This document shows, piece by piece, positions 19,354-46,853 of a stretch of 64,000 bases of DNA. This DNA is from Dehalococcoidia bacterium (GTDB lineage Bacteria > Chloroflexota > Dehalococcoidia > SZUA-161 > SpSt-899). A program made the translations under genes and the position numbers. The notes under the pieces were generated by a model, which searched no databases, was not told the DNA's origin, and saw only the letters and a program-made list of their open reading frames with translations. The stretch spans positions 31,486-95,485 of the forward strand of contig JBLYPS010000003.1 in the NCBI GenBank assembly GCA_048539495.1. Reading direction: 5' to 3'. Numbering within the stretch: position 1 is the stretch's first letter; every line of letters begins with the position of its first letter.

Positions 19354-19356
19354 ACC

Positions 19357-21483: not shown

Positions 21484-21611
21484 CCCTTAGCCTACCTGCA
21501 AAGATTATTGCACAATTCCTCCTGTTATTGCGAGCAAAGTGAAGCAAGATCATCAGGGGGATTCTCGCCCTGAAACCCCCTAAAGCGGTTGACGGTTCTG
21601 TTCGTTTGTGC

Positions 21612-28222: not shown

Positions 28223-28476
28223 AGCAATACGAGTACGCTATCACAGTCCATAAAGCGGGTGAAATACTTGCCAGGGTTCCAGACCTCCTGGCAGAGGAGA
28301 CACCGCCCCTGGTATATTGCGATTACCAGGGTAAGTGTTTCTTTGATGATGCTCCCAGTCCCTATATGACAGCCATCGTCGAAATACTCAACGCCCAGGG
28401 CGAACAAGGTTGGGTATTGGCTCAAATCGTGCTGCGCCAGCAGGACATGATCTGCTTCTGGCGGCGCAACCGATAA
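28219..28476 (+). CDS. DUF4177-like small protein
   Basis: The '[10 protein letters not shown]...[15 protein letters not shown]' pattern is present. Its start overlaps the stop of the upstream gene by 4 nt. Confidence 0.5.
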
Positions 28477-28549
28477 GGGGATTGGGAAGTGTGAAATCAT
28501 CCTGTTTGAGAGGGGAGAGCACATTTCTTTTGCGAACTGTGTATTGCCC

Positions 28550-28750
28550 TAACCCGGACGAGCCGGAACCAACAAGGCATATTGTCGTTTAAATTCGAAA
28601 TTCGAAGCACGAAATACTAAACAAATCCCAAAGTTCAAATGTTCAAAACTGCCCCATATTTGGAATTTTCCTATTTGGATTTGTTTAGTGCTTAGAAATT
28701 AGGATTTAGGATTTTTCCATTTTGCGCAAGACTTTAGACTTAAGGGACTA
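28550..28750 (+). repeat. ~200-bp direct repeat, copy 1 (island boundary or noncoding element)
   Basis: It is about 93% identical to 44690-44889 in the same orientation. It contains the internal inverted repeat 'cgaagcacgaaatactaaacaaatcc' / 'ggatttgtttagtgcttag'. Confidence 0.7.
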
Positions 28751-28765
28751 TTATATCGGGGAGGT

Positions 28766-29068
28766 GTGGGTGGCGCACCCATAGACTATGAAATGGCTTC
28801 CCCGGTGCACGGACATCTCCGGGAAAAGGGTGTTGAATTGCACCTCGGTGATGGTATAGAAGCGATACACCATGACCGGAAATATTCGACGGTTGACTTA
28901 AGTAGCGGTGAGAGAATTGAAACAGATATGATTGTGCTCGGTATTGGGGTGCGTCCTGAAAAGGAAATGGCCGAAGATGCCGGGTTGGAATTGGGCGAAC
29001 GCGGTGTTCATTTATCCTATTGGAACCGCGATGGCTTTGGCACACGTGCTACGCCGCGCAATGGATAA
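28766..29068 (+). pseudogene. Internal fragment of an FAD/NAD(P)-dependent pyridine nucleotide-disulfide oxidoreductase
   Basis: 'GERIETDMIVLGIGVRPEKEMAEDAGLELGERG' is the typical second NAD-binding segment. There is no N-terminal FAD fold and no proper start. Confidence 0.45.
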
Positions 29069-29641
29069 TATCCATGTCTATGAGATGGAGAACCTGCCCG
29101 CAACAAGCGCATAACACGCCGTTGACGGCTGATGCCCAAACCCGCCGCTTGCCATCTAAGTCCGCAGGTGTTATACTCGTTGTGTAAACACAATTTTTGT
29201 GTCATAACGCCAGTATTGCCCAAGCAAAACTGTATATGGAACTGAATATTGCGCTCTTCACCACTCAAACACTTCTCACCCAATTCTGCCAATTCCGTTC
29301 CATAGGTATTGCATGCCTCGCCCCCCCTCGGGGTCGCCAGCACCTGGCAATCCTTTCGTTGAGAAGGCAGCCACCCGCTCTCAGGAAAAATCGACCTGCG
29401 CGAGATTTAAAAGAGTTGGGGGTGATCGACCGCTCAACCCTCAGTGGCAAAAAATGCCGTTATAGGGGGGCAGGGTGAGTTTGGGGCATCTAATCCAACG
29501 GACTGCGCACTGCCAGCCTTCCGCGATTGAGCAAGTCTTGGTCGCCAAGTAGCAGGTCAGCAAGCCATGTCTTCCTAGCCCCGCGTGGGCGACTGAGTCG
29601 CAACCCGTTGGGCCAGTAACACTATCGGCAAAGAATAGCTA

Positions 29642-30130
29642 ATGAAAACGACGAATTACTTCACAACCAGCGTCACGGTGCGTCGTCCTTATCTCAAGAT
29701 GAAATGGATCGAATATGTGCTCAATAGTCCTATCTGCACAGAGGTGCAAGCTAATGGACGTATTCGTCATTGGGCACTGATAGTAGAAACTGGTAAGTAC
29801 CTGCGAGTGGTTACAGAACCAGACGGAAAAACAATACATAATGCTTTTTTGATCGCCGTTTTAAGCCCTAAAAGAGGAGGAGGTAGGAAAAAGATGGTTT
29901 TTCAATACCACCCGGATACTGATATGCTTTACCTAAAACTTGTCGAGGGGGTAAGTACGGAGTCTGAAGAAGTTACGCCTGGCATTGTGCTTGACTTCGA
30001 CGAACACAATCGGGTTATCGGCATTGAGATTGAGGACGCCAGCAACTTTGTTGATTTATCTCGTTTAGAAGTCTTAGCCTTGCCTGTCGCTAACCTGATA
30101 CTCAGTGAGCGAGTGTCTGCAAAGGTGTAG
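29642..30130 (+). CDS. DUF4258-DUF2283 fusion protein (normally a two-gene toxin-antitoxin-like pair)
   Basis: The C-terminal half 'MVFQYHPDTDMLYLKLVEG...GIVLDFDEHNRVIGIEIEDAS' resembles DUF2283. The N-terminal half resembles DUF4258. No stop codon separates them. Confidence 0.45.
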   Translation: MKTTNYFTTSVTVRRPYLKMKWIEYVLNSPICTEVQANGRIRHWALIVETGKYLRVVTEPDGKTIHNAFLIAVLSPKRGGGRKKMVFQYHPDTDMLYLKLVEGVSTESEEVTPGIVLDFDEHNRVIGIEIEDASNFVDLSRLEVLALPVANLILSERVSAKV

Positions 30131-30382
30131 TATAGTCAGTATTATCAACAGCGGTGGCCTAACAAGCGATTGCAGCCGACCGCCCTCGGCCCGGGTAGGC
30201 GTGGCGTGTCTTGCCATCAATCCTTCTGGTTATTAGAGCGAGTCTTGCCAGAGTCGGCGGCGGCTGAACCGCGTGCCGTTAGGCTTTCTTCTACAGACAG
30301 GGATATGTCTGAAATAGTTCAGGTATATTCCCCAAAACGGCGGGATATGCGAACTTGGCTCCGATAGGAACGAGAGAAGTTA

Positions 30383-30469
30383 ATGAGTCAAAAAGCTTTC
30401 TTAGCAAGGCTCGTAGCAAAGTTGGAGCATTCTGGGATTCCCTATATGATTTCAGGGTCATTAGGCTGA
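30383..30469 (+). pseudogene. N-terminal remnant of a nucleotidyltransferase, paralogous to the 7236-7802 gene
   Basis: It encodes 'MSQKAFLARLVAKLEHSGIPYMISGSLG*', which parallels 'MSQQELLKKVIQALDQAGIQYMITGSIVSS' in the 7236-7802 gene. Confidence 0.4.
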
Positions 30470-30628
30470 GAAATTACAGCTTCCTGAATAAAGTGGAAGA
30501 ATCGTGACGGCAGATAACCCATGGTTCACGGCTCCGCTTCGCACCGCCCAACTCAGCTTTGCTGAGTTCGTGAACCCCGAAACCGTTAGACGACGTGCAC
30601 GGTTCCGCACTAAACAAAAAGGAGGGAT

Positions 30629-30949
30629 TTGTCAATGTCGTTAGTTAAAACCGGATACGAGCACGTCACCATTGATGAAGTTGGCGTGCCAATTATTACA
30701 GGCACTACGATGAAGGTGGTCGAACTTGTGATTGAGAGAACAGCATACGGCTGGAGTCCGGAAGAACTCCACTTCCAACACCCATATTTGACCTTGGGGC
30801 AAATCCATTCAGCCCTGGCATACTATTGGGACCATGTGGAGGAACTAGGGCAGGACATTGAACGTCGCCTGCACCACGTCGAACAGGTATGCCAAAAAGT
30901 CGGGCCCTCGCCGTTGGTGGCCCGACTGAAAGCCAAAGGATTGCTATAA
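30629..30949 (+). CDS. DUF433 protein (antitoxin-like)
   Basis: The 'VPIITGTTMKVVELVIERTAYGWSPEEL...LTLGQIHSALAYY' segment resembles DUF433. Its stop overlaps the partner gene's start as TAATG. Confidence 0.6.
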   Translation: MSMSLVKTGYEHVTIDEVGVPIITGTTMKVVELVIERTAYGWSPEELHFQHPYLTLGQIHSALAYYWDHVEELGQDIERRLHHVEQVCQKVGPSPLVARLKAKGLL

Positions 30950-31296
30950 TGGCGATTGCCTTTTATATGGACACCCATATTCCCAGGGTCATTACGATTG
31001 GGTTGCGCCTCCGTGGAGTTGAGGTCATCACAGCGCAAGAGGACAATGCAACCGATCTGTCTGATCCTGGGCTACTTGATCGGGCCACGGGTCTGCGACG
31101 GGTGCTGTTTACCTTTGACGACGACTTGTTGGCTGAGGCCACACGACGCCAATTAGAGGGTATTCCTTTTGCAGGTGTGATTTATGCTCATCCCTTACGC
31201 GTGTCAATTGGAACTTGTGTCAACGATCTAGAACTTATTGCTAGAGTGGGAGAACCTGAAGATCTAGCGAATCGAACGGAGTTCTTGCCGTTTTGA
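30949..31296 (+). CDS. DUF5615 protein (PIN-like toxin-like partner)
   Basis: The 'MAIAFYMDTHIPRVITIGLRLRGVEVITAQE' segment resembles DUF5615. It has a 1-nt overlap with the DUF433 gene. Confidence 0.55.
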   Translation: MAIAFYMDTHIPRVITIGLRLRGVEVITAQEDNATDLSDPGLLDRATGLRRVLFTFDDDLLAEATRRQLEGIPFAGVIYAHPLRVSIGTCVNDLELIARVGEPEDLANRTEFLPF

Positions 31297-31343
31297 GAAC
31301 CCCGTGACGTTTTCGATTGACCAGGCACGTCACCTAACATAGC

Positions 31344-32012
31344 ATGAAAAGGTCGCTAATGTACTTTAAAGCCGTAGTCTTCGATCTCGACGGAACGCTT
31401 CTTGACACGCTGGAAGATATTGCCCACTCCGCAAATACTGTGCTGGCAAGACGCGGCTTCCCCACACACAGCCTGGACGACTACCGTTATTTCGTGGGCG
31501 AAGGGGTGACTACGCTTATTACCCGCGTGCTGCCCGACGAGAAACGGAACGATGACACCATAGCGGAGTGCGTAAGGGCATTTCGGGAAGAGTATGGTCG
31601 TAACTGGAATGTGAAGACGACGCCATATGACGGTGTGCCGCAGATGCTCGATGAGCTGGCGTCGCGCCATCTAAAACTGGCAGTGCTCTCCAACAAGCCG
31701 GATGATTTCACCAAAAAATGTGTCACGGAACTCCTGCCAGACTGGACATTCGAGATAGTTTTGGGCCTCCACAGTGGAATTCCGCCCAAGCCGGACCCAA
31801 CAGGTGCCTCTCAGGTAGCTGAGTACTTGAGTGTCCCGCCGTCACGCATCCTCTACGTGGGGGATTCCGGCATAGATATGAAGACAGCCATCGCTGCCGG
31901 CATGTTCCCGCTAGGGGTACTCTGGGGATTCAGGTCACAAGAGGAGCTCCAGGATAACGGGGCGCAGGCACTGATCTCACGACCACAGGAGATTTTGGCT
32001 GTCTTGTATTAG
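31344..32012 (+). CDS. HAD-superfamily phosphatase (phosphoglycolate phosphatase-like)
   Basis: Motif I 'VVFDLDGTLLDT', 'LSNKP' and 'VGDSGIDMKTA' are present. The 5' 138 bp of this gene are duplicated at 34962-35100. Confidence 0.7.
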   Translation: MKRSLMYFKAVVFDLDGTLLDTLEDIAHSANTVLARRGFPTHSLDDYRYFVGEGVTTLITRVLPDEKRNDDTIAECVRAFREEYGRNWNVKTTPYDGVPQMLDELASRHLKLAVLSNKPDDFTKKCVTELLPDWTFEIVLGLHSGIPPKPDPTGASQVAEYLSVPPSRILYVGDSGIDMKTAIAAGMFPLGVLWGFRSQEELQDNGAQALISRPQEILAVLY

Positions 32013-33061
32013 CTATCAGCTTTCAGAAGGGGAGGGGGACCCCTGACTCTTGACTCTTGACTAAAAGACAGCAGGTCGCACTTGTTGCCCACCACCAGCA
32101 CCGCTCTGCTATCCAGGAGCTCGATGACCTCGAAATCGGCGGCATTAAGCGGTTCGCTGATATCAGTCACCAGCAGGACAAGCGCCGCCTGCTCAATGGC
32201 CTTACGGCTCCGCTCCACGCCCAGGGTCTCGATCACATCTTCGCTGTGAGTGATCCCCGCGGTGTCGATCAGAACGAAAGTCACTCCTTCTAAGTTCACT
32301 ACCTCTTCCAGAGTATCGCGGGTGGTGCCGGGGATGGGGATCACGATGGCCCGATTCTCCCGTAACAACCGATTCAACAAGCTCGACTTCCCCACATTCG
32401 GCCGTCCCACGATGGCCGTCCGCACGCCCTGACGATAGACGATACCGACATCGGCGCCGGCGATGAGTTCATCCAGCTCGAAGTGTGCTTTCTTGATTGG
32501 CTCCAGGGCATCCTGTTCCTCGACCTCGTCCTCGGGGAAATCAATTCTCGCAGTGAGGTAGGCCAGCACGGATAGTAAGTCGTTCCGTATCAACCTAATT
32601 TGCCCGGAGAGCCTTCCCCCCAATCCCTGCACCGCCAGGCGGAGGCTGGCCTGCGTCCTGGCCTGCACGATGTCCAGGACCGACTCCGCCTGCGAGAGGT
32701 CAATCCTGCCGTTCAGGAATGCCCTCAGCGTGAATTCGCCCGGCTCAGCCAGCCGGGCTCCGAGCTTAAGTGTAAGTCCCAGTATATGCTGCAGAGGCAC
32801 AATGCCACCGTGACAGTTGATCTCTACGATGTCCTCCCGGGTATAGGTGTGGGGAGCAGCCATATAGGCCACCAGCACCTCATCAACCACCTCGCAGGTT
32901 CCGGGATCGATTATGTGCCCGTAGCTCAGTCGGCGGTCCGAGAGCCTCTTATCAAAAAGTTTTGTCGCAATCGAGCAGGCGTCCTGCCCGCTGAGACGGA
33001 CGATCCTGATCCCGCCCTCGCCAATGGGGGTAGAGATAGCTGCGATGGTATCTTGATACAT
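32009..33061 (-). pseudogene. mnmE: tRNA modification GTPase MnmE, 3'-truncated
   Basis: The N-domain 'IAAISTPIGEGGIRIVRLSG', 'GEFTLRAFLNGRIDLSQAE', and G-domain motifs G1 to G4 ('GRPNVGKSS', 'DTAG', 'NKCDL') are present. The ORF ends in a repeat-derived tail 'SQESRVRGPPPLLKADS'. It lacks the C-terminal helical domain and the CxGK motif. The 3' end abuts the convergent HAD gene. Confidence 0.55.
32013..32065. repeat. G-rich core plus heptamer array at the mnmE truncation point
   Basis: The sequence is 'ttcagaaggggagggggacccctgactcttgactcttgactaaaag'. Confidence 0.5.
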
Positions 33062-33234
33062 AGCTATCTTACGAGTTTCGAGTTTTGGGTTTAGAGATCT
33101 CCCCCTCTCCCCGCCTCAACACTCAATATTCTATGCTCAACACTTACAGTATAGCTTTTCTAGCGATGGCAAACAAGAAGACGCTATTTGAGTTTCAAAA
33201 ATCGTCTTTTTGGGATAGAATATAAATAAGCGTT

Positions 33235-33300
33235 TGCCGAGGATAAACCTCGGCACTACGTTTTGCTGCGTAGCGCGGGGGCTTGTCCCCCGCCGGTGCC
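33235..33300. repeat. Double-hairpin REP-like element (family G), inverted copy
   Basis: It contains 'gccgaggataaacctcggc' and 'gcgggggcttgtcccccgc', matching the copy at 4418-4470. Confidence 0.5.
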
Positions 33301-33327
33301 CTTGCAGAGGGAATCGAGGTACTGACT

Positions 33328-33891
33328 TTGGATAGGAGATGTATCCTTATACTAGGGGGAGCGCGCAGCGGGAAGAGCCGCTTTGCCGAGAATCTGGCGG
33401 GCACTATCAGCGGCAAGGTTCTCTTCATTGCCACTGCCGAGGCCCTCGATGAGGAAATGAAGACACGGATCGCGGAACACCAGCGCCAGCGTCCAAGCTC
33501 CTGGCAGACTCTGGAGGCACCCACCGATGTGACCAAGGGAATTGCCGCGCGGATCGGCGATGCTGAGATCGTGCTCATCGATTGTCTCACTTTGCTGGTC
33601 TCGAATCTCATGCTGGGCGAAGAACGAGGGCTCTCGGAATCGGGCGGGCTCGACACCAAGGATGCCGAGAATCGCGTCGTGGCGGAAATAGAAACACTGG
33701 CTGAATTCATCCAAAAGACAAGTGCAACCTTCATCATCGTCTCCAACGAGGTCGGACTCGGCCTCGTGTCGGAGAACAGGCTGGGGCGGGTGTATTGTGA
33801 CCTTCTGGGAAGAGCCAACCAACTGATCGCCCGATATGCCAATGAAGTCTATTTCATGGTCGCCGGCATTCCAATGAAGGTGAAAGGATAA
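33328..33891 (+). CDS. cobU: Adenosylcobinamide kinase / adenosylcobinamide-phosphate guanylyltransferase
   Basis: A P-loop '[16 protein letters not shown]' is present. The start is probably the TTG at 33328, because the upstream part of the predicted ORF is occupied by the family G repeat. Confidence 0.7.
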
Positions 33892-33893
33892 CC

Positions 33894-34808
33894 ATGACCG
33901 CCAAAACGCTGATGATCCAGGGTACCGGCTCCTCGGTCGGCAAGAGCATCATTGTTACCGCCCTGTGTCGTATCATGCATCAGGATGGTTTCAACGCAGC
34001 ACCATTCAAGTCGCAAAACATGTCGCTGAACTCCTTTGTGACCCGAGACGGCCTGGAGATGGCACGAGCCCAGGCGGTGCAGGCTGAAGCCGCGGGCATT
34101 GAGCCGTGCGTGGATATGAATCCGGTGCTGCTCAAGCCCGAGGCCGATGCCCGGTCACAGGTGGTGGTTATGGGGAAGCCATGGATGACCATCAGCGCCC
34201 GTGACTACTACCGGCACACGCCCGATCTTTTTCCCATAATCGAAGGGTCCCTGGATCGACTGCGTTCCCGGTACGACATCGTAATAATCGAAGGTGCCGG
34301 GAGCCCGGCGGAGATAAACCTCCGCCGCTTCGAGATGGTGAATATGAGCATCGCCAGGCTGGCTCAGTCACCGGTTCTGCTCGTGGGAGACATTGATAAA
34401 GGCGGGGTTTTCGCCTCCCTCGTAGGAACCATCGTCCTCCTCCAGGACGAGGAAAGGGAGAGAATCAAGGGTTTCATCATCAATAAATTCCGTGGTGATG
34501 TCTCCATTCTCCAACCGGGGCTCGATTACCTGGAGGACCACACCGGCATTGCGGTTCTCGGCGTGGTGCCCTACTATCACAACATCATGATCGATGAAGA
34601 GGACTCCATACATCAACCCTACCTCCACGGGCTCTTCGACAACGAACGCTTTCGACGTGGCTTGCTGCACAATATAAAGCCTGACTGCCCGCTCGAAATG
34701 AAAAGCGAGATGCCTTTCAGAGAGGAGCAATATGATAAACTCGCCATGATCGTGCGGCAGAGTCTTGATATGGAGCGTATCTACACTTTACTATCTCACT
34801 CTCTCTAG
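33894..34808 (+). pseudogene. cobQ: Cobyric acid synthase CobQ/CbiP, N-terminal ATPase half only
   Basis: The CobQ N-domain '[11 protein letters not shown]' and the '[16 protein letters not shown]' junction are present. The ORF stops before the glutamine amidotransferase domain. It is followed by a duplicated fragment of the HAD gene. Confidence 0.5.
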
Positions 34809-34961
34809 CCTGTGATGTAGCAGCGTCATTGCCTTTGATTCAAGCAAACCTAACACTAGGGGTGCTAGTAAGCCGCGGCATGGGACGAGAGATAATTTGT
34901 CCAATCCTTTTCGCTACTGGGTTAATCTATATGCCAAGAAGTTGTGCTTGGCATTACCAGG

Positions 34962-35100
34962 GATCGCTAATGTACTTTAAAGTCGTAGTCTTCGATCTCG
35001 ACGGAACGCTTCTTGACACGCTGGAAGATATTGCCAACTCCGTAAATACTGTCCTGGCAAGACGCGGCTTCCCCACACACAGCCTGGACGACTACCGCTC
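34962..35100 (+). repeat. Segmental duplicate of the 5' end of the HAD phosphatase gene
   Basis: It is about 95% identical to 31352-31490 and encodes 'MYFKVVVFDLDGTLLDTLEDIANSVNTVLARRGFPTHSLDDYR'. It is then interrupted by the family F repeat. Confidence 0.7.
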
Positions 35101-35103
35101 CAA

Positions 35104-35157
35104 AGGGTAGGGGCAAATTTATTCGCCCTGTCGGGGGAGGCTTTAGCCTCCCCTACC
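35104..35157. repeat. Nested-hairpin REP-like element (family F)
   Basis: 'gggtagggg' and 'gggcaaatttattcgccc' and 'gggaggctttagcctccc' and 'ctaccc' form the nested structure. An inverted copy is at 36604-36658. Confidence 0.55.
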
Positions 35158-35794
35158 TGTTTTCGCTGACTGCTGACCGCTGCAGATGGCAGGTGTCATT
35201 CAGCACGATGAACGCCGCTCCATAGGGTGAGGTCTCCATGATGGTGACCGAGGCGCTGCCGAGGCGCACCTGCCACCAGTGCTCCAGGCCAATTCCCAGC
35301 AGCAGGCAGATAAGCACTTGCAGCGAGCCCCCGTGAGCCACCACTAACACCGTTTCCTCGGGTTCATATCCCTTCAGCTCCTCGGCGAACTGGGCCACCC
35401 TGGCGCCAAGTTGAGCTATGCTCTCACCGTTAGGGAGACGAATTTCCGGACTTCTGGTTCGCCAGGCTTGAAGATCGCCGGCGATCCGGGGGTAGTTCTC
35501 CTTGATCTCGTCGAAGGTCATTCCTTCAGCCTGGCCGAAGTCCATCTCCCTCAATAACGCTGTTTGACGGATCTCCGCCATGCCGTGCATCGAGGCGATG
35601 CTCCGAGCAGTTTCACACGCCCGGGAGAGGTCGCTGGAGTAGATAACATCTATCCTCTCACCGGCAAGTCGATCCCTCACCCTTGCCGCCTGTTCGATCC
35701 CATTGTCGTTCAAGTGGATATCGCTGTGGCCCTGATACCGAAACGACTTGTTCCACTCCGTCTCGCCGTGCCTTACAAGTATAAGCCTAGCCAA
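35153..35794 (-). CDS. cobC: Alpha-ribazole phosphatase (histidine phosphatase family)
   Basis: The 'LVRHGETEWN' RHG motif is present. The gene is adjacent to cobS and cobT. Confidence 0.75.
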   Translation of the reverse strand: MARLILVRHGETEWNKSFRYQGHSDIHLNDNGIEQAARVRDRLAGERIDVIYSSDLSRACETARSIASMHGMAEIRQTALLREMDFGQAEGMTFDEIKENYPRIAGDLQAWRTRSPEIRLPNGESIAQLGARVAQFAEELKGYEPEETVLVVAHGGSLQVLICLLLGIGLEHWWQVRLGSASVTIMETSPYGAAFIVLNDTCHLQRSAVSENR

Positions 35795-36567
35795 CTTGTT
35801 CCTCCTAGTTTACCGATTATGATGATCAGAATCAGCGTCGCTACCTCGGAAAGCTCGATTATAGCACCATAGGTATCGCCCGTAAGTCCGCCGAGGCGTG
35901 AGCTGAGAGTTCTCGCCAGCAGAAAGCTGGTAACCCAAACCACAACCACCATCGCTACCCCGGCGTAACTCAGAAAAGCCGCTGCTGCAGCTACGGCGAT
36001 CACCGTTGCCATGCCCATCTTCAGCCAGCTCGCCTGCTTCTTGAACACCTGGCCCAGTCCCTCCTTCTTAGCGGAGGGGAAGGCAGTGATAGCGTAGGTA
36101 GCACTCCATCTACTCAGGGTAGGCATCAGCAGGAGCGCTGCCGCTCTCAACCCCACCGGCATGGTTATCAGCGAGATAACTTTAAGCAGGATGAGGCAGC
36201 ATGCCCCCACCACCCCGAACCCCCCCACCCGGCTATCGGCCATCACCCTGAGCCTTTCGGCCGCGGAGCTCCTCAAGGCAAACCCATCGCAGGTGTCCAT
36301 CAATCCATCGAGATGGAGCGCACCAGTGAAGAGAATAAGCGAAACGACCAGTAAGGCGCTCACGAGCAGCGGAGGCAGGAAGAGTCCCAGTAGCTGGTCG
36401 AGCCCCAACAGGATCGCCCCCAATATAAGCCCCACCAGCGAGAAGTAGCTTATCGAGCGGCCAATCCCGCTCTCACTGAAGCCTCGGCCTCCTGGGGCAG
36501 GGAATACGGTGAGAAACTGCCAGGCAGTCCAGAAACCCAAATCGTCTCCTCTCCGTTCAAGGTTCAA
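35773..36567 (-). CDS. cobS: Adenosylcobinamide-GDP ribazoletransferase (cobalamin synthase)
   Basis: The 264-aa polytopic membrane protein has a CobS-like profile 'LLVSLILFTGALHLDGLMDTCDG'. Confidence 0.8.
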   Translation of the reverse strand: MNLERRGDDLGFWTAWQFLTVFPAPGGRGFSESGIGRSISYFSLVGLILGAILLGLDQLLGLFLPPLLVSALLVVSLILFTGALHLDGLMDTCDGFALRSSAAERLRVMADSRVGGFGVVGACCLILLKVISLITMPVGLRAAALLLMPTLSRWSATYAITAFPSAKKEGLGQVFKKQASWLKMGMATVIAVAAAAAFLSYAGVAMVVVVWVTSFLLARTLSSRLGGLTGDTYGAIIELSEVATLILIIIIGKLGGTSWLGLYL

Positions 36568-36603
36568 GGTTCAAAGTTGCGGCTTGTTCCGAGCGCGGGC
36601 TCT

Positions 36604-36658
36604 AGGGTAGGGGCGAATAAATTCGCCCTGTGGCGGGAGGCTAAAGCCTCCCCTACCC
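36604..36658. repeat. Nested-hairpin REP-like element (family F), inverted copy
   Basis: The sequence is 'gggtaggggcgaataaattcgccctgtggcgggaggctaaagcctcccctaccc'. It lies between cobT and cobS. Confidence 0.55.
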
Positions 36659-37720
36659 AACCTCTTCCGATTCGGAGACCCCGGCCTCCTCAAAGGTGGC
36701 CATCTCGTCCAGGACCTTCGTTGCAGCCTCAGCAATGCTTATTGCTAAGGCTGCCCCAGTGCCTTCCCCAAGGCGCATCCTGAGGTTGAGCAGCGCGGTG
36801 AGCCCCAGGTGCTCCAGTGCCACCCGGTGCCCGGCTTCCACCGATAGATGGGCGGCGATGAAATATTCTCTGGCAGTCGGCGAGAGCCCCGCAGCGATGA
36901 GCGCCGCTGCCCCGGAGATGAAACCATCAATGACCACCGGGATGCGGTTTGCTGCTGCTCCCAGCATAACGCCGGCGAGCCCGCCGATTTCAAATCCCCC
37001 TACCCTGGCCAGCACATCGAGGGGATCATCAGGATTGGGTTGGTTCACCTGGAGCGCTTTTTCAATTACCGCCACTTTGTGGGTCAGTTGCTCATCCCGC
37101 AGACCGGTACCGCGGCCGGTGACCTCGACCACCGGCTTGCCGGTCATCACGGCACAGACGGCACTTGATGCGGTGGTGTTGCCAATCCCCATATCGCCGG
37201 TGCCCACTATATCCAATCCTTTGGCGATCTCCGACTCAAGCACCTCGATCCCCGCCTCAATGGCATCCAGCGCCTGCTGCCGGCTCATAGCCGGTTCGCG
37301 GGCGATGTTTTTGGTGCCGAAATCAATCATCTTACAGAGAAGCCCGGAATGGGGTTCGCATCCACCGATAACGCCCATATCCACCACCACAACCCTTGCC
37401 CCCACATGGCGGGCGAGGACATTGATACCCGCCCCTCCTCCCAGAAAGTTGAGCACCATCTGCCCGGTTACCTCCTGGGGATAGAGGCTTATCCCCTCGG
37501 CTGCCACGCCGTGATCAGCAGCCATAGTGATGATGGCCTTGTGCCGAATCTTCGGCCGGGGATTCCCCGTTATCCCGGCGATAAGGATGGCAAGGTCTTC
37601 AAGCTGTCCCAGGCTGCCCTGAGGCTTGGTGAGTGTATCCTGGCGCCTTCTGGCGGTCTCCATTGCCTCCAAATTCAGAGGCTTTATTGCCCCAAGTGTT
37701 TCGGTTAGGGATTTGGTCAT
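36653..37720 (-). CDS. cobT: Nicotinate-nucleotide--dimethylbenzimidazole phosphoribosyltransferase
   Basis: 'GDMGIGNTT', 'GGGAGINV' and the overall CobT fold are present in a 355-aa product. Confidence 0.85.
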   Translation of the reverse strand: MTKSLTETLGAIKPLNLEAMETARRRQDTLTKPQGSLGQLEDLAILIAGITGNPRPKIRHKAIITMAADHGVAAEGISLYPQEVTGQMVLNFLGGGAGINVLARHVGARVVVVDMGVIGGCEPHSGLLCKMIDFGTKNIAREPAMSRQQALDAIEAGIEVLESEIAKGLDIVGTGDMGIGNTTASSAVCAVMTGKPVVEVTGRGTGLRDEQLTHKVAVIEKALQVNQPNPDDPLDVLARVGGFEIGGLAGVMLGAAANRIPVVIDGFISGAAALIAAGLSPTAREYFIAAHLSVEAGHRVALEHLGLTALLNLRMRLGEGTGAALAISIAEAATKVLDEMATFEEAGVSESEEVG

Positions 37721-37882
37721 CGCATTATCCTCCTAATATATACAGTCTTACCGCAACTGCGCAAGTCCTGCCTATCTGAAACCAGAGTAAATTTCTCCGG
37801 CCGAGCGTATCCTTTAAGACAAGTCCTGTTCTCAAAGACGCTCAAATCGGATCTCGTCCAAAAGGTACCGCCAGTTCCTAAA

Positions 37883-37971
<89 letters not shown>

Positions 37972-38022
37972 CATGTATCCTGCTCGGCAATTGTATCCAG
38001 GGATATACTCAGCCGCTCGAAA

Positions 38023-38108
38023 GCGGAGGGGGTGGGATTCGAACCCACGGTCACCAGAGATGACACCGCTTTTCGAGAGCGGCACCTTAAGCCACTCGGT
38101 CACCCCTC
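38023..38108 (-). tRNA. tRNA-Ser (anticodon CGA)
   Basis: The reverse complement reads GGAGGGGTGACCGAGTGGCTTAAGGTGCCGCTCTCGAAAAGCGGTGTCATCTCTGGTGACCGTGGGTTCGAATCCCACCCCCTCCG. It has a CCGCT/AGCGG anticodon stem with the loop CTCGAAA, a long variable arm, and no encoded CCA. Confidence 0.85.
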
Positions 38109-38813
38109 CGGGCCTGTTCTTGAAGCTAAATTAGCGATTGTAAGCACTTACCCCATTAGACATAACAAGGTTTTGCTGATAATTTGCTAATAATGATTTT
38201 GAACGGCTTCTTTTTCACACCTGCCATTAAGCAGTTTATCAAAACTCTGGGCTGCCTCCTCTTGAAGTCCAGGAGCAACGTGGGAGTAGGTGTCGAAGGT
38301 TATCTGAATAACTGGCATAGCCTAACCGATCCTGGACTATCTTGGGGTGTACTCCCTACTTCAGCATTAGTGAGACGCGGGTGCGGATTTCGCTCAAAGC
38401 CACCCGGTTCGCCAAACCGGCCACCTTCTCGGTCGAAACCGGCCACCTGCCCTAGAAGTAGCCGGGGGTCGGAGCGACACTAGGCTTATTTCAGTTTAGC
38501 TCAAGTTGGTGTCAATTGCAAATCCCTCCTTTCGCTCGTTTTTCTGATTTGCCACCGGGGTGGGGGGGGTGAGGGAAAAGCGTCAGATTGACATTGCGAT
38601 GGCTGCGTAGCTCATTATGAGGATTCTAGGGCTTTCTTGTTGCCCAGCTCTACTCCAGCTCCTCTCCGAGTCCTCTTCGACTAATTGGGCTCCATCTAGA
38701 AGTGGCCGATTTGCTCCGTGAAGGTGGCCGATTAACTCCGAAAAACGCACGCTGCACGCACACTCGGACGAACCGGAACCAGATTTTCATTCTCCACATT
38801 AGCTTTAGTAGAA

Positions 38814-40097
38814 TCAAGGGCTTCTTCTCGGGTCATTTCCACTTCCGCCAGTACTAGCTGGTTTCAACAACGAGGTCAATATAATAGTTATGACACTGAT
38901 TGTTGCACAGATTAAGAAAGCTAGTTGATAGCTACCAGTCATATCAAATATACTACCAGCCACGACCGGACCAATAGCTCCCCCAATTGCAAAGCCAAAC
39001 GCAAGAATCCCCATGATTGCACCGAGTGAACTTAGTCCAAATAACTCAGCGGTTACTGGTGACTCTAGCGCTGCTATACCACCATAGGCAAACCCAAAGA
39101 TAAGGGCAAACAGATACAACATCCACACCTCTCTGGCTGCTAACAGCCACAATAAAGCAACTGATATCAGAATAAAGTTAATAATAAGAGCTGACTTATT
39201 ACCAATTCGATCACCACCGCTACCCATTGTAATCCTCCCGGCTATACTTAGCCCACCAATAATAGGTAGAATATTGGCAGCACCGGTGGCTGAAATTCCA
39301 AGCTCAGTGGCGTGGGGGACAATATGCACCATGATAATATTTAAGAATATACCGAAACAGAACATCATAGCAAAAAACATCCAGAATTGGCTCATATGAA
39401 CTGCTTCCTTAAGAGAAAACCCCCTAGCCTGTAAACCTAAACCTTTCTCCTCTAACCCATTCTCACCATATGGCAACCGCGCCATCTGACCGGGGTCACG
39501 CTTTAAAAACTGCGCTACCGGTACAAGCAATACTAAAGTTATGATACCTACAATAATATAAGAGGTTCTCCAGCCATAGCTAGCGATGAGCCAACTAGTT
39601 ATCGGGGGTATAGTCATTATGCCTACACCTATGCCAGCTACAACAATACCGGTCATTATTCCCCTTCTCTTGGCAAACCACCTAGCTACTGTAGATACCA
39701 GCGGGACGAATCCGCCACTCATCCCAATACCCATCATCACCCCATAGAACAGATATAGCTGCCAAATAGCACCAATCTGAGACATCAATAGATGGCCCAA
39801 TCCTAAAATGAAGCCACAAGCTGTCACAACAATCTTCGGACCAAACCTATCACTTAATCTCCCGGTGATAATGCTCAGAAAACCGAATAAGAGCAAACAC
39901 AATGAGAAGGCACCTGATGTGATTGCTCTAGTCCAGCCAAACTCTGCTGACAACGGCTTAAAAAAGATACCAAAGCTATAAAATGTGCCGAACATTACCA
40001 CCAAGATAAGGAAGGTAACCCCAACCACAATATAACCATAGAACAACTTAGGTTTTCTATGTCCAGCTAAGTGAAAATCACCTGTCTCCTTAATCAA
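38814..40097 (-). CDS. MFS transporter (oxalate/formate antiporter-like)
   Basis: The product has 12 predicted transmembrane segments and the 'GRLSDRFGPK' loop motif. Confidence 0.8.
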   Translation of the reverse strand: MIKETGDFHLAGHRKPKLFYGYIVVGVTFLILVVMFGTFYSFGIFFKPLSAEFGWTRAITSGAFSLCLLLFGFLSIITGRLSDRFGPKIVVTACGFILGLGHLLMSQIGAIWQLYLFYGVMMGIGMSGGFVPLVSTVARWFAKRRGIMTGIVVAGIGVGIMTIPPITSWLIASYGWRTSYIIVGIITLVLLVPVAQFLKRDPGQMARLPYGENGLEEKGLGLQARGFSLKEAVHMSQFWMFFAMMFCFGIFLNIIMVHIVPHATELGISATGAANILPIIGGLSIAGRITMGSGGDRIGNKSALIINFILISVALLWLLAAREVWMLYLFALIFGFAYGGIAALESPVTAELFGLSSLGAIMGILAFGFAIGGAIGPVVAGSIFDMTGSYQLAFLICATISVITIILTSLLKPASTGGSGNDPRRSP

Positions 40098-40253
40098 AAT
40101 AACAAAACCCCCTTCAAACTACCCATACATAGCGCGGCCTCCTGCCGCAACCAAAATATTCGCGGTGGGCATAGTTTTTTCAGAGTAATATGCGCTAAAT
40201 CTGACCTAGCCGACTTGTCTCACAGCAACAAAGACTCCCGCTTCGACTTGTCA

Positions 40254-41093
40254 TCAAGATTTAGTCTCTTCCAAAGACATGCAGGGAGCTACAAGCTTGT
40301 TAAGCATACCTTGTAACTCGTCGAGCACCTCCTCAAGAGGCAGCAATGATTCAACTTGCTGCTTCAAATCCTTTTCCCAGTAGCTCTTCAGTACCCCTGG
40401 GTCTCCCGGAAGAAAATCGCTCATAGATCGGAGGCAAAGGCCCTTATGTGCAAGCTTCTCGGCCAGCACTGCCCCCAGAAGCTCGAAGTTAAGCTGGGAA
40501 GAGTGCTCCCTTAATACTCTCCATACGTCGTAATAATCTCTGGATTTACCGCGTTCAAGCAAGCTTCGCATCTTCTCAGCAAGCAACTCTTCCAGTGGGT
40601 AGACCAGTACCTCTCGTTGCTGATCAGTAAAGGGGTCAGTTAACACTCTCCGATATTCAGGCTCAAGGCATAATGGTTCGTCAAAGCTCAAGTCCATATA
40701 AATCATACCCGGGTAGGACAAGGGGCCCAGGAACTGACTTCGGATGCGAGCATAACCATCTGTCTTATGAAGCATCTTAGTCGTAAGCTGTATCTGGGAC
40801 TCCTGTTCTACCTGGCGATACCATCCGTCAAGAGATTGCCTTAGCTCTTCTTTAGCCATGTCATGTCTCACCGTAAAGTCCAGGTCTTCCGAGTAACGCC
40901 AGTGCGAGAAATAGACTTTACGTAGGGCAGTACCTCCCTTGAATACCATCACCTCATTCAGCACTGGCACCTGTGATAGAGTTTTAAGCACCTCTGTAAG
41001 CACGTAGTCTTTTTCCAATATGCCTAAAGCTACTTTTTCGTGTTGGGCCATCCTCTGCAATTCGGCCTTGGATAACACTACTGCTCCTTCCAC
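40254..41093 (-). CDS. abiEii: AbiEii-family nucleotidyltransferase toxin (type IV toxin-antitoxin)
   Basis: The 'VFKGGTALRKVYFSHWRYSEDLDF' nucleotidyltransferase motif (DUF1814) is present. Confidence 0.75.
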   Translation of the reverse strand: MEGAVVLSKAELQRMAQHEKVALGILEKDYVLTEVLKTLSQVPVLNEVMVFKGGTALRKVYFSHWRYSEDLDFTVRHDMAKEELRQSLDGWYRQVEQESQIQLTTKMLHKTDGYARIRSQFLGPLSYPGMIYMDLSFDEPLCLEPEYRRVLTDPFTDQQREVLVYPLEELLAEKMRSLLERGKSRDYYDVWRVLREHSSQLNFELLGAVLAEKLAHKGLCLRSMSDFLPGDPGVLKSYWEKDLKQQVESLLPLEEVLDELQGMLNKLVAPCMSLEETKS

Positions 41094-41899
41094 TGTAAGA
41101 GTTCATTCTCCGAAACATTTACGATGATTTTCCATCGGTCAAGATATCTACCCTCGGTATTTGCCAGGGTATCAAGCGGGGCATATCCACTACTCATGCC
41201 ATCACGGAGAATGACAATAGCCTCATCTCTATCGGGGCTTAGCGTCTCCAGAAGGTAGCCTAACCGCTGGCTTACAGCTCTGTTTCCGCTCTTCCGTGCA
41301 TACTCAGCCAATTTCACAAAATCAAGCTCGTCGCGCCCATACCACAGTGCCTTAGCTACTTCTGCTACGCCGCCACAGTACCGTAATCGGTCAAGGCAAT
41401 CTACTATTGTTTTTTCAGGTTCGGAGATGTTAACCCCATGTTTATCCAAAATCACTTCGGTTTCTCCAAAGAATTTATGCTCAGACATATACACAAAGCG
41501 GTATGTTACTCCGGAAATCTCCAGAGCTGGCTTTGACTTGCGACGAGTTGAAGCTATGAAGACAGTCCGACTAACTTGTTCCGTATAGCCATAGTAATTG
41601 AGGGCACTGCGGAATCCAATATAGTAGGGGTTGATAAGATAGGAGGCAATTATGAATTCATGTTCAGTCCACTCACCTTCGCGTCCGGCTTCAAAGGGTA
41701 ATATGAGATATTTACCCCGCTCCATGCGTTGAAGCCAGCGTCGCTTAACCAGTCTGGATAACAGTCCGTGCAGTCCACTATTGCTAGTACCGTAGATTTT
41801 AGCAGCATCATCGAAGGTGAAAAGGCGCTTACCTTGACGGGTCAGCTCTGTCAAGAGATTGCTCCCTGTATCGCCAAGAGTTCTTATGTTTTGTGCCAT
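41078..41899 (-). CDS. abiEi: AbiEi-family antitoxin/transcriptional regulator
   Basis: The N-terminal wHTH region '...RLVKRRWLQRMERGKYLI' is typical of AbiEi. It overlaps abiEii by 16 nt. The start is probably MAQNIRTLG. Confidence 0.65.
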   Translation of the reverse strand: MAQNIRTLGDTGSNLLTELTRQGKRLFTFDDAAKIYGTSNSGLHGLLSRLVKRRWLQRMERGKYLILPFEAGREGEWTEHEFIIASYLINPYYIGFRSALNYYGYTEQVSRTVFIASTRRKSKPALEISGVTYRFVYMSEHKFFGETEVILDKHGVNISEPEKTIVDCLDRLRYCGGVAEVAKALWYGRDELDFVKLAEYARKSGNRAVSQRLGYLLETLSPDRDEAIVILRDGMSSGYAPLDTLANTEGRYLDRWKIIVNVSENELLQWKEQ

Positions 41900-42164
41900 A
41901 ATAGTTACCTCCGCCGTCATTATTATAGCACAAAACATCAACCATCATGGATGCTAAATGGGAGAAAGCTTAAACTAGCCCCTTGTCAGGGTGAACAATC
42001 CGTCATTTTGTTACCCCACCGAGTGCATTTGCTGCCTTGCAAGCCAAACGCTTTGATGCTAGAATCATTTTTGATAGTGACAGTTGCGTTAGATAGTTAG
42101 ACTAGAGGCCATTTTAAAAGTTCTACCTATTATAACCCCAACTCCAGAGGGAAGGAAGTTAAGC

Positions 42165-44621
42165 CTATTTCTTTTCCTCTCCCGGGGCATAGAATTGTTT
42201 TAACTTTGCCGCCATTTCCTTTAATTTTTGGTCCACTTTATAGTTGACCGTCCCTTCGGGATAGGTGCCGTCTTCCCCTCTCTTAGCGGCCTCAACCCCG
42301 GTAAGGATTTCGATGCCCTCATCAATGGTATTAACAGCATAGATGTGGAACTTCCCTTGCCGCACAGCTTCAACCACTTCCTGGCGCAGCATCAGGTTGC
42401 TAAGATTATGGTGCGGCATTAGTATCCCTTGGTCTGCGGTAAGCCCATTAGCCTGACAAACCTTGAAGAAACCCTCGACTTTCTCGTTTATGCCACCTAC
42501 CGGCTGGAGTTCTCCCTTCTGATTCACCGAGCCAGTAACGGCGATATTCTGTTTTATCCCCAAGCCCGATAGGCTAGAGAGCAAGGCATAGAGCTCGGCT
42601 GAAGAGGCGCTATCCCCCTCCACACCTTCATAGGACTGCTCAAAACATAGACTAGCCGACAAAGAGAGGGGATTATCCTGGGCATACTTCCAGCCCATAT
42701 AGCCACTAAGGATGAGAACGCCTTTATCATGGATTCGACCACTGAGCTGGGACTCCCTCTCAATATTAATAACGCCTCCCCGCCCCAAGAAGGTTTTGCA
42801 GGTGATGCGGGATGGCTTGCCAAAGGTGATGTCCCCCAGATTGTAGGTGCTGAGTCCATTCACTTGCCCCACTACCTCCCCTTGGGTATCTATCATGATA
42901 GTGCCCCGATTAATCAACTCCCTGATTCGCTCATCAGGCAGGTTATGGCGGAAGTGCCTTTCCTCAATGGCTCTTTCTACATGCTGTGCCGATACCACTG
43001 AAGCCCCGTCCTGGCAAGCCCAGTATTCTGCCTCCTCCACCAGCTCCTTAACCTGGGCAAACCTGGAGGATAGCTTTTCCTGGTTAGCCACCATTCGTGC
43101 CGCAAACTCGGCTACCCTGGCGACCCCAGTAGTATCGAAATGGTGTAGCTCACCTTCCTCACAACAGCCAGCAATGAAGGCTGCAAAAGCCATCAGGTTA
43201 TCCTGGCTCCTTTCCACCTGAAAGTCAAAGTCAGCCTTTACCCTAAAGGTCTCCCAGAAGTCTTCATCACGGATTGATAATAGTTGATAAAGCAGGCTAT
43301 CACCAATAAGGATTACCTTGACAGAGATAGGTATTGGTTGTGGCCTTAACCCCTGTGGTGCTATGTGGCCAAACTGTTCTAAAAGGTCTTCAATACGAGC
43401 TTCCTTAGTCTTAATCGCTCGCTTTAAGGCTTGCCAAACGCCAGGGTTGCTCAATACCTCATTGGTGCTGAGCAGGAGATAGCCCCCGTTAGCTAAGTGA
43501 AGAGCCCCCGGTTTCAACATGGTGTGGTCGCTGAGATATCCCCCCAGCAGGAAGCGCCGCTCAATCTTGCCCAACAGATTGGAGTAGGTAGGATTGGACT
43601 CGATGATTATCGGTGGTCCTTCAGTGGTGCTATTGTCAACAAAGACATTAACCTGGAAGGGGAGGAAAGGATCCCGCCAGTGCGTCGCATAGCTAATGGG
43701 GACACCCATGGCTGGGGGTGCTGGCTCCTCGCTTTCCTTGAAAATGCTTAAATTGCTCAGGGTATAGTTCTTAAGGTCGGCCAGATACTGGATAACCTTT
43801 GGCAGGTCTTTATATTCCCGCAGAAGGTAGTCCAGGAAGCGGGAAACAGTAAAATCAGCTATAGCTTTGTCGGTACTCTGTAATTTTTCCCCAGTTTGCT
43901 TCTCTATCTCATGCACCCGTTCTAGAACTGCTTTCAGCTTTTTTAGCAGGTCAGAGCGTTTTGCCTCCAATTCTTTCTGTTCTGTCTCCGCTAAAGCCAA
44001 GTAATCCGCCTGAGATAGGGGTTTCCCATCAGCCAAAGGATATAGCATTACTCCTGTGGTTGCCATCTCAAAGAGGAAACCTTGGCGTTGGGCTTCCTCA
44101 TTTATTTCTTGGAGAAGCTTCTGCTGGGCAGCGCGGCTTTCCTCTACGGTCCTTTTCCTTTGGGCTTTGTATTCTTCGCTGGAGAAGGCTTTAGCTAGCT
44201 CTTCTTTAAGCCCCAGTAAGAGGTTACTTATTTGGTCTTTGAACACTTTACCCATTCCGTGAGGCAGGTTCAGGACTTGCGGGTGGTCGGGGTCGGCATA
44301 GTTGTAGAGATAACACCAATCTTCGGGGTGATACTGTAGCTCTGTCTTTCTCTTCTCCGCCAGCTTTTTAATATAACTCTTCACCACTGAAGTCTTGCCG
44401 GTTCCGGTTAGCCCGGCGACGTAGATGTTATAGCCATCACGGTTCATGGACAGTCCAAACTCAATTGCCCGTATAGCTCGGTCTTGCCCGATAAACTCCC
44501 CCAACGGCGCCAAATCTTTAGTGGTGTTGAAGTCAAAAATAGACGGGTCGCAGTGCCAGTATAATCTATCTGCCGGAACTTCATATTTGGTGATGTCCAT
44601 AGTTCCTCCCTTCAGGGTCAT
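42165..44621 (-). CDS. Lon-like AAA+ ATP-dependent protease (LonB/BrxL-like family)
   Basis: A Walker A 'VAGLTGTGKTS', a central coiled-coil, and a C-terminal Lon S16 domain are present. The S16 domain contains a catalytic Ser in 'EGDSASSAELYALLSSL' and a Lys in 'GGINEKVEG'. Confidence 0.7.
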   Translation of the reverse strand: MTLKGGTMDITKYEVPADRLYWHCDPSIFDFNTTKDLAPLGEFIGQDRAIRAIEFGLSMNRDGYNIYVAGLTGTGKTSVVKSYIKKLAEKRKTELQYHPEDWCYLYNYADPDHPQVLNLPHGMGKVFKDQISNLLLGLKEELAKAFSSEEYKAQRKRTVEESRAAQQKLLQEINEEAQRQGFLFEMATTGVMLYPLADGKPLSQADYLALAETEQKELEAKRSDLLKKLKAVLERVHEIEKQTGEKLQSTDKAIADFTVSRFLDYLLREYKDLPKVIQYLADLKNYTLSNLSIFKESEEPAPPAMGVPISYATHWRDPFLPFQVNVFVDNSTTEGPPIIIESNPTYSNLLGKIERRFLLGGYLSDHTMLKPGALHLANGGYLLLSTNEVLSNPGVWQALKRAIKTKEARIEDLLEQFGHIAPQGLRPQPIPISVKVILIGDSLLYQLLSIRDEDFWETFRVKADFDFQVERSQDNLMAFAAFIAGCCEEGELHHFDTTGVARVAEFAARMVANQEKLSSRFAQVKELVEEAEYWACQDGASVVSAQHVERAIEERHFRHNLPDERIRELINRGTIMIDTQGEVVGQVNGLSTYNLGDITFGKPSRITCKTFLGRGGVINIERESQLSGRIHDKGVLILSGYMGWKYAQDNPLSLSASLCFEQSYEGVEGDSASSAELYALLSSLSGLGIKQNIAVTGSVNQKGELQPVGGINEKVEGFFKVCQANGLTADQGILMPHHNLSNLMLRQEVVEAVRQGKFHIYAVNTIDEGIEILTGVEAAKRGEDGTYPEGTVNYKVDQKLKEMAAKLKQFYAPGEEKK

Positions 44622-44689
44622 CCTATCTTTATTTATATACTAATTCGTTATATGGTTCAAGCTAAACATCTGTGAGGCTTTATTTACGC

Positions 44690-44889
44690 CAACCCAGACA
44701 AGCCGGAACCAACAAGGCATATTGTCGTTTAAATTCGAAATCCGAAGCACGAAATACTAAACAAATCCCAAATCCCAATGTTCAAATGTTCAAAACTGCC
44801 TCATATTTGGAATTTTGCTATTTGGATTTGTTTAGTGCTTAGAAATTAGGATTTAGGATTTTCCATTTTACGCAAGACTTTAGATTTAA
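44690..44889 (+). repeat. ~200-bp direct repeat, copy 2
   Basis: It matches 28550-28750. It lies between the mutL 3' end and the Lon-like gene's 5' end, and it may carry that gene's promoter. Confidence 0.7.
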
Positions 44890-44921
44890 GGGACTAACCT
44901 GTCTTGTTCTATTCCCGAACT

Positions 44922-46619: not shown

Positions 46620-46853
46620 TGTCCCACCTCGAAGACTATTGTACCAGATTGCCCTGCCGCTCTACAAAGCAGGCTGGACAAATCCAACGTTTTCTGCTAA
46701 TATCATTGAGGGTAACTACTAAGACTCAAAGTTCCAAGGTTCACGGTTCAAGGTTAGAGAGCGATGAAGATTGAAATATGGAGAGCGCAAAGCAGACAAT
46801 CGTGAACCCGACAGCCTAAAATAGTTATTGGGTAAGAACAATGACCACGACAC

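Follow-up and report, generated by a model that had tools for sequence, protein, structure and literature searches.

The question raised by this stretch is what two near-identical direct repeats represent at either side of a 16-kb block of mixed gene content. The stretch, hereafter the window, comprises 64,000 nt of contig JBLYPS010000003.1 (positions 31,486 to 95,485) of a Dehalococcoidia bacterium, and the original prediction took the repeats, of about 200 bp each, as possible attL/attR-like borders of an island or, alternatively, as a repeated non-coding RNA or promoter module. The repeats are present as predicted. They were located by repeat finding, pairwise alignment and BLAST, and further copies and an empty site served to refine their limits to those of Table 1. 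The two copies start 16,140 nt apart and differ by seven substitutions (six of them transitions) and eight gap columns, seven of them due to a TCCCAAT heptamer and one to a single nucleotide. Identical sequence extends over 41 nt at most. The 20-nt motif of their left end occurs twice in the window as against 0.00 occurrences expected by chance, and neither BLAST nor a profile search disclosed a third copy there. Both are AT-rich (GC 0.35-0.37), and the inverted repeat predicted inside each of them is real, though imperfect, with 73% (copy 1) and 70% (copy 2) complementarity between the arms. We believe that the repeats are very probably two separate insertions of one non-coding, non-autonomous mobile element of about 200 bp, dispersed over the chromosome in this lineage of Dehalococcoidia.

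The first line of evidence is the presence of the same unit elsewhere. A scan of the GTDB-representative genomes with a motif of the left part yielded a single contig (L010, from BS517, a metagenome-assembled genome of a sister species) with 96% identity between its unit and copy 2, and with adjoining genes that are absent from the window. A metagenome scan with the motif of the left palindrome arm yielded 49 loci, among which the complete unit recurs in L011, L023 (the same as L029), L046, L054 and L056, and a truncated copy in L041. These copies are 93-99% identical to one another. Units measure 199-207 nt, with a mini form of 63 nt and a variant of 229 nt in addition. In every copy the similarity begins at ACCC(G/A)(G/A)AC and finishes at (G/T)GACTA, and the ends are sharp at all loci (ACCCGGACAAGCCGGAA...AAGGGACTA). 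The unit thus occurs with identical ends in at least nine distinct gene contexts, at least seven of them besides the two in the window; dispersed copies of this kind are what the original prediction had named as speaking for a generic repeat rather than an island boundary. The contexts are diverse, with functions assigned from the translated sequences: the unit stands between a pirin-like and a 187-aa gene in L011, between dnaG-like and sigma-factor-like genes in L023 and between two heterodisulfide-reductase-like genes in L046, while NuoF-like and thioredoxin-domain open reading frames (ORFs) are among its other neighbors. Its orientation with respect to them is mixed (copy 2, L023 and L056 are antisense). 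Draft assemblies of the lineage (QLUK-QLUN, BBPE and BBPF) match the window at 99-100% identity, and contigs of four of them (L004, L006, L008 and L009) terminate inside the unit, as expected of a multicopy repeat. The unit was unmatched in plasmid and phage collections; viral contigs scanned with left-end and right-end motifs gave 45 and 4 matches, respectively, all of them chance occurrences inside coding sequence (e.g. DPDKPE codons) and devoid of profile support.

The second line of evidence is an empty site. Through homologues of the OxMo (molybdopterin oxidoreductase) protein we reached L063, a contig whose DNA is about 87% identical to the window across polA-ThiS-OxMo-DUF4177 and where the DUF4177 gene is followed by an intact Pyr_redox_2 (pyridine-nucleotide-disulphide oxidoreductase) gene. 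The empty junction in L063 reads ...GCCCTA|TTATATCGG (in longer form GGATTGCCCTA|TTATATCGGGGAGGTG, with ...TGTGGATTGCCCTA as left flank and the codons L P | Y Y), whereas the filled junction in the window reads GTATTGCCCTA (longer, ...TGTGTATTGCCCTA) followed by the 199-nt unit (ACCCGG...AAGGGACTA) and TTATATCGGGGAGGTG. This comparison shows copy 1 to be a discrete insertion into coding sequence. It landed inside the oxidoreductase gene, which has since become a decayed pseudogene bordering a zone that varies between strains: a 176-nt deletion took the promoter and the first 79 nt of the gene, and a 407-nt internal deletion starts 16 nt downstream of the unit. The strain-variable zone begins at 29015, 265 nt to the right of copy 1, and not at the unit itself. 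No further empty sites were found among the loci fetched. As a separate observation, contig L007 of strain QLUK is 99.3% identical to the window up to that breakpoint (L007 position 5689) and unrelated beyond it, Fer4/FAD-binding, NMO and Zn-ribbon genes replacing there the toxin-antitoxin modules.

The junctions also tell about target and termini. CCTA precedes eight of the 11 left junctions, the others being CTTA, GCCA (copy 2, 44688-44691) and an ACTA that is the terminus of another unit; no conservation was detected in the right flanks. The right terminus always ends in CTA, and GGGACTA is invariant apart from point changes. (C)TA is therefore found on both sides of the unit and once in the empty site (CCCTA|T), a pattern that fits either a 2-3-nt duplication or a conservative insertion beside a core shared with the element. 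Since the right-hand CTA is constant while the left-hand one varies (CCA, TTA), the former may belong to the element. The conserved sequence extends over about 20 nt at the left end (ACCCGGACAAGCCGGAA..) and about 36 nt at the right end (..TTCCATTTTGCGCAAGAC..AAGGGACTA). No terminal inverted repeats were found, as the left end ACCCGGAC and the reverse complement of the right end TAGTCCCT share CCC only, and the sole inverted repeat of the unit is the internal one. As single-stranded DNA, the left end could form only a 4-bp CCGG hairpin (CCGG-N5-CCGG), and the right end has no subterminal hairpin (DNA fold of -0.1 kcal/mol, z +1.03). Two units (the one in L010 and the mini unit in L054) run straight into another left end, complete or partial, as expected if the ...ACTA right terminus re-creates the target.

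Between these ends, the palindrome is replaceable. In the mini unit (L054:4997-5059, 63 nt) the left end is joined to the right end and the palindrome is absent, and L061:13426-13654, from a relative with an 85%-identical MutL, presents the same ends and CCTA flank around a different AT-rich palindrome. The palindrome is phased in heptamers (AAATTCG AAATCCG AAGCACG AAATACT ...), and its arms (AAATYCGAAATYCGAAGCACGAAATACTAAACAAATYC ... GTTTCGGATTTCGATATTCGRATTT; motif CGAAGCACGAAATACTAAACAAAT) are also present in about 35 other metagenome contigs, with sharp AAAT.../...ATTT limits and as single arms in some. These contigs span a GC of 0.35-0.64, and the arm sequence AAATYCGAAATYCGAAGCACGAAATACTAAACAAAT.. 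recurs almost unchanged across them, including L038. The MutL encoded there and that of the window are only 35% identical, and the organism must thus be distantly related. We found no paper on the arm sequence.

These data show that the unit inserts directly after CCTA, with (C)TA at either side, and that a heptamer-phased, imperfect and AT-rich palindrome is the replaceable part between the two conserved ends. We suggest that an enzyme encoded elsewhere in the genome would move it in trans. Because there are no terminal inverted repeats, the target preference is one-sided and the right terminus is invariant, a site-specific or single-strand mechanism appears plausible, similar to that of IS200/IS605 or IS110 and with a short core in common, and a classical DDE cut-and-paste with random target duplication less likely. 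The unit does not fully present any defining feature of the IS200/IS605 or IS110 families. The placement of two equally oriented copies around these 16 kb would be incidental.

The comparison with known systems places the unit close to several of them. It agrees with the definition of a MITE (miniature inverted-repeat transposable element; review PMC10969869) in being small, non-coding, dispersed and hairpin-prone. With MITEs and with the Correia, ERIC/RU-1, RUP and Rickettsia palindromic elements it shares a size below 500 bp, the lack of an ORF, an AT-rich sequence, multiple dispersed copies in mostly intergenic positions and either orientation, the potential for a long imperfect hairpin and a documented empty versus filled site. 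It departs from them in that its termini are not inverted repeats (only CCC/GGG match), its flanking (C)TA is fixed at the right and variable at the left, unlike a random target duplication, and its palindrome is internal and replaceable; moreover, it has no known parent insertion sequence (IS). Palindrome-associated transposable elements (PATEs) are non-autonomous IS200/IS605 derivatives moved by Y1 HUH transposases. Like them, the unit lacks terminal inverted repeats, has distinct ends, inserts directly 3' of a short conserved target (CCTA) and has a right terminus (ACTA) that resembles the target, with no clear duplication; unlike them, it has only the 4-bp CCGG hairpin at the left and no predicted subterminal hairpin at the right, and a TnpA/TnpB gene is absent from the window. 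Repetitive extragenic palindromes (REPs) are short, GC-rich sequences with a conserved 5' tetranucleotide, present in hundreds of copies and confined to species bearing the corresponding RAYT gene. REP doublets (REPINs) resemble the unit in having two inverted arms and a hairpin of about 120 nt, with single arms in the wider family, but in the unit an AT-rich, heptamer-phased palindrome is part of a longer sequence of about 200 nt with unrelated ends, the 64 kb hold only two copies, and related arms occur in organisms with a 35%-identical MutL. Heptanucleotide direct repeats are known in cyanobacteria as short tandemly repeated repetitive (STRR) sequences. The TAACTGA heptamer repeats of Beggiatoaceae are intergenic, lie upstream of start codons and have a patchy distribution across phyla (PMC4679880). 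The unit palindrome is likewise made of 7-nt phased units; however, those repeats are simple direct arrays of one heptamer, whereas here diverged heptamers build two inverted arms within a bounded insertion. We conclude that the unit adds a new form to the small, non-autonomous insertion repeats already known in bacteria, marked by its asymmetric ends, defined target and modular palindrome. Our literature searches for small repeats in Dehalococcoidia yielded general reviews only and no described repeat; the unit provides a small insertion element with exact ends, target and empty site in uncultured members of this group. Units of this kind break draft assemblies, can inactivate genes, as with the oxidoreductase here, and supply short homologies for rearrangement; their asymmetric ends and replaceable palindrome offer a handle for finding the enzyme that moves them.

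Several points weigh against a mobile element. The other contexts come from draft, metagenome-derived assemblies, and the short repeats typical of the window that L011 and L023 also share link them to its lineage only weakly. The empty site in L063 stems from a different population, and the filled one also has the adjoining deletions (176 nt upstream and 407 nt from 16 nt downstream). A TA target duplication is indistinguishable from a terminus that simply ends in TA. Mobility is deduced from one empty/filled pair plus the dispersal pattern, because the search for an autonomous partner sharing these ends gave none: within the 64-kb window there is no parent IS or transposase gene with the ends of the unit. 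Finally, identity between the L010 units of the sister species and the window copies amounts to 94-97% as compared with 88-92% for the ribosomal-protein and mutL coding DNA, a difference that could reflect recent spread but would also fit selection on function.

A more far-reaching proposal, which we regard as rather unlikely, is that the unit represents an undescribed class of small mobile elements with two unlike ends, inserting after CCTA by means of a recombinase, site-specific or single-strand, that has yet to be connected with it, and carrying interchangeable heptamer-phased AT-rich palindromes. If true, it would imply that a palindrome module is spreading across phyla.

The similarity between species bears on the possibility that the unit functions chiefly in cis regulation or as a small RNA (a transcript-stabilizing or attenuating hairpin, or a 5'-untranslated-region cassette), its copies being kept alike by selection, with mobility secondary or absent. 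Several copies lie just upstream of co-oriented genes, but the unit occurs in both orientations with respect to its neighbors and one copy is inside coding sequence. Many members of the wider palindrome family are close upstream of ORFs with GroEL-, DnaJ-, MutL- and CarB-like N-termini (identities deduced from sequence), and in L046 the right end provides an AAGGGA motif 9 nt ahead of an ATG; nevertheless, consensus scans around both window copies found neither a sigma-70-like promoter nor an intrinsic terminator. The plus strand folds somewhat better than shuffled sequences (z -2.07 for copy 2 and -1.39 for copy 1) while the minus strand does not, and the overall range for both strands of both copies (z -0.12 to -2.07) is too weak to argue for a structured RNA. 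Rfam at the gathering threshold recognized only two tRNAs in the window and none of the related hairpins at 15 loci. With the limit relaxed to E<=10, copy 1 gave only chance, microRNA-like matches (best sub-threshold E=0.074). Across the wide palindrome family the arms do not covary, since the mean score of an element's own arms (21.1) is scarcely different from that with arms of other elements (19.9), which argues against a structure kept by compensatory change; moreover, the 63-nt version has no hairpin. Altogether, we consider a mainly regulatory or RNA function improbable. The alternative of the original prediction, a repeated non-coding module, was in this respect nearer the truth than its island, although an insertion element is favored over a promoter or RNA gene. 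As an independent observation, in L046 (3953-3967) the right end of the unit (AAGGGACTA) is 6 nt ahead of the ATG of the downstream heterodisulfide-reductase-like gene, so that the only Shine-Dalgarno-like motif of this gene lies within the inserted unit.

To return to the mobile element and to the block between its two copies, the evidence makes it highly improbable that these are attL/attR borders created by site-specific integration of a 16-kb island. In favor of such borders, both copies point the same way, the DNA that they enclose holds toxin-antitoxin modules, AbiE and gene remnants, the strain difference with L007 begins 265 nt to the right of copy 1 and the MFS-AbiE-Lon part has a lower GC (0.47). 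However, the same-ended unit is present at the other loci described above, the strain breakpoint at 29015 is away from the repeat, and the empty site of copy 1 reveals a clean 199-nt insertion in a gene and not an island junction. Pfam scans (E<=0.01; tRNAs were called by ARAGORN) detected no integrase, recombinase or transposase domain in the 47 window ORFs scanned, block included. The interval holds cobU/T/S/C, genes for the lower ligand of cobalamin, and two tRNA-Ser genes, and its GC (0.517) is that of the window (0.520), so the distinct composition expected of the block was not observed. The suggested junction between mutL and DUF4177 was not seen in any relative or contig: L061 and L062, whose MutL is 82-85% identical, have unrelated genes on both sides of mutL, which makes synteny uninformative, and the sister-species assembly QLUN (L060) keeps mutL-rpsL-rpsG-fusA on a contig that ends at mutL. 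The interval is thus a patchwork of core and accessory genes and not an island, in keeping with the predicted mosaic with gene remnants, and it should not be annotated as one mobile unit; a false island call is in this way removed. Most of the predicted gene inventory was confirmed by Pfam. The nucleotidyltransferase remnant (29197-29478) had no match at the same threshold, only the DUF2283 part of the DUF4258-DUF2283 fusion scored, and a HAD hydrolase gene and cobU were missing from the list. Copy 2 lies, as predicted, just upstream of the Lon-like gene, in the mutL-Lon spacer, 70 nt ahead of the LonC-like start codon and 25 nt beyond the mutL stop, antisense to both. With regard to the proposal that the repeats are a substrate for deletion or inversion, they could in principle recombine because stretches as long as 41 nt are identical in both, and a deletion between them would remove cobUTSC and the two tRNA-Ser genes, but no assembly shows a deletion junction. 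The solitary left-end-like motif in the MFS-AbiE-Lon part (Table 1) has neither a preceding CCTA nor a right end nearby, and may represent either the remains of a third copy or a random match.

That the copies are leftovers of a segmental duplication, or a recombination joint from the assembly of the block, is hardly credible: the block has other rearrangement scars (the 97%-identical HAD duplication that brackets truncated mnmE and cobQ, see below), but the similarity between the copies stops exactly where it does at all other loci, and their flanks share nothing past the CCTA-like target. An integron attC/VCR nature was rejected: attL/attR and attC/VCR sites likewise are directly repeated, measure 100-200 bp, contain imperfect palindromes and adjoin toxin-antitoxin cassettes, but there is no integrase here, R'/R'' boxes (GTTRRRY/RYYYAAC) are absent, orientations are mixed and the copies are scattered beside housekeeping genes, one of them inside a gene.

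Table 1. Position of the insertion units, their parts and the surrounding features in the window
Feature	Position	Strand	Remarks
polA		-	left flank
ThiS-like gene		-	left flank, after polA
OxMo molybdopterin oxidoreductase gene	27632-28222		left flank, after ThiS-like gene
DUF4177-like gene	28219-28476		left flank, before copy 1
Pyr_redox_2 N-terminal remnant	28494-28551	+	encodes IILFERGEHISFANCVLP; 96.6% identical to L063 4311-4368
CCTA target	28548-28551	+	directly 5' of copy 1; already in the L063 empty site
Insertion unit copy 1	28552-28750	+	199 nt; from repeat finding, alignment, other copies and L063 empty site
Copy 1 left end	28552-28573	+	ACCCGGACGAGCCGGAACCAAC
Copy 1 linker	28574-28590	+	
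Copy 1 AT-rich imperfect palindrome	28591-28714	+	41-nt arms, 28591-28631 / 28674-28714
Copy 1 right end	28715-28750	+	TTCCATTTTGCGCAAGACTTTAGACTTAAGGGACTA
Interval between copies	28751-44691		patchwork, not one element
Pyr_redox_2 downstream remnant	28751-29068	+	28751-28766 exact continuation of L063; homology resumes at 28777
Toxin-antitoxin and remnant zone	28751-31343		GC 0.50; Pyr_redox_2 fragment, DUF2283 protein, DUF433/DUF5615 pair, followed by HAD
HAD to tRNA-Ser zone	31344-38110		GC 0.57; genes as in the next six rows
HAD hydrolase gene	31344-32012		
mnmE, 3'-truncated		-	
cobU	33283-33891		
cobQ, truncated			followed by the 134-nt duplicate of the HAD 5' end
cobC/cobS/cobT		-	
tRNA-Ser(GGA) and tRNA-Ser(CGA)		-	
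MFS to LonC-like zone	38111-44691		GC 0.47; MFS transporter (-), AbiEii/AbiEi (-), LonC-like protease (-), then copy 2
Solitary left-end-like motif	38762-38781	+	ACTCGGACGAACCGGAACC; 3 mismatches in 17
Insertion unit copy 2	44692-44896	+	205 nt; from repeat finding, alignment and comparison with other copies
Copy 2 left end	44692-44713	+	
Copy 2 linker	44714-44730	+	
Copy 2 palindrome	44731-44861	+	TCCCAAT heptamer extra with respect to copy 1; 57-nt arms, 44731-44787 / 44805-44861
Copy 2 right end	44862-44896	+	
mutL		-	right flank, after copy 2
rpsL, rpsG, fusA		+	right flank, after mutL

Besides the two units, the block presents other repeats. A 134-nt stretch of the 5' end of the HAD gene is directly duplicated (31353-31486 and 34964-35097, 97% identical), bracketing 3.5 kb with the 3'-truncated mnmE, cobU and the truncated cobQ, a rearrangement scar that has nothing to do with the 200-bp unit. 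A 54-nt double-hairpin repeat (GGGCAAATTTATTCGCCC + GGGGAGGCTTTAGCCTCCCC) is located after cobC (35104-35157) and in the cobS-cobT spacer (36604-36657), and is also present in L007 and L023. In L066 (10001-15490) and L067, whose OxMo is 81% identical, the OxMo and LonC-like genes share a strand and are separated by 2.5 kb holding HSP20, M50 protease and trypsin-like genes, while in the window their distance is 14 kb and their strands are opposite. That an inversion parted OxMo and Lon is left as speculation, because the two unit copies are direct and not inverted.

Heptamer repeats are frequent throughout the window, where 38 of the 60 rows reported by Tandem Repeats Finder have a period of 7. 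The arrays are often paired and complementary, so that they form palindromes (e.g. 61060-61125, 50435-50506 and 62633-62711), and the palindrome of the unit is built likewise. Three of them are in frame inside the intact 967-aa polA ORF on the minus strand (24878-24968, 25861-25948 and 26155-26216), as illustrated by (AGAGTCG)x4.9 ... (GACTCCA)x4.9, and encode stretches such as GVWSRESGVWS; the two in the part covered by L063 are far shorter or absent in that contig (84 versus 15 nt, and 97 versus 49 nt). The unit offers a way to ask why such palindromes abound in this genome, even in frame in polA. Palindromes of the GGGTAAT/ATTACCC type occupy spacers of the ribosomal-protein region (50427-50506, 52080-52160, 62633-62711 and 63126-63211), and one copy is also present in the sister species (L060). 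An 88-nt sequence of the mutL-rpsL spacer (46726-46813), which includes a (TCAAGGT)x4 array, is 85% identical to a stretch beside the unit in L023. In addition, inverted 60-nt copies of a GATTGCTTCGCTCGCAATGAC-type module were found at 3899-3958 and 58931-58990, and this module adjoins the AT-rich palindrome arm in the unrelated metagenome contigs L016, L057 and L059.

Finally, a region of low GC (0.37-0.43) at 16000-21500, between serS and lysS, has genes for a ResIII/endonuclease protein and an N6/N4 DNA methylase besides small ORFs, and is a probable restriction-modification or defence island; the matching contig L006 has a faint HEPN match annotated.

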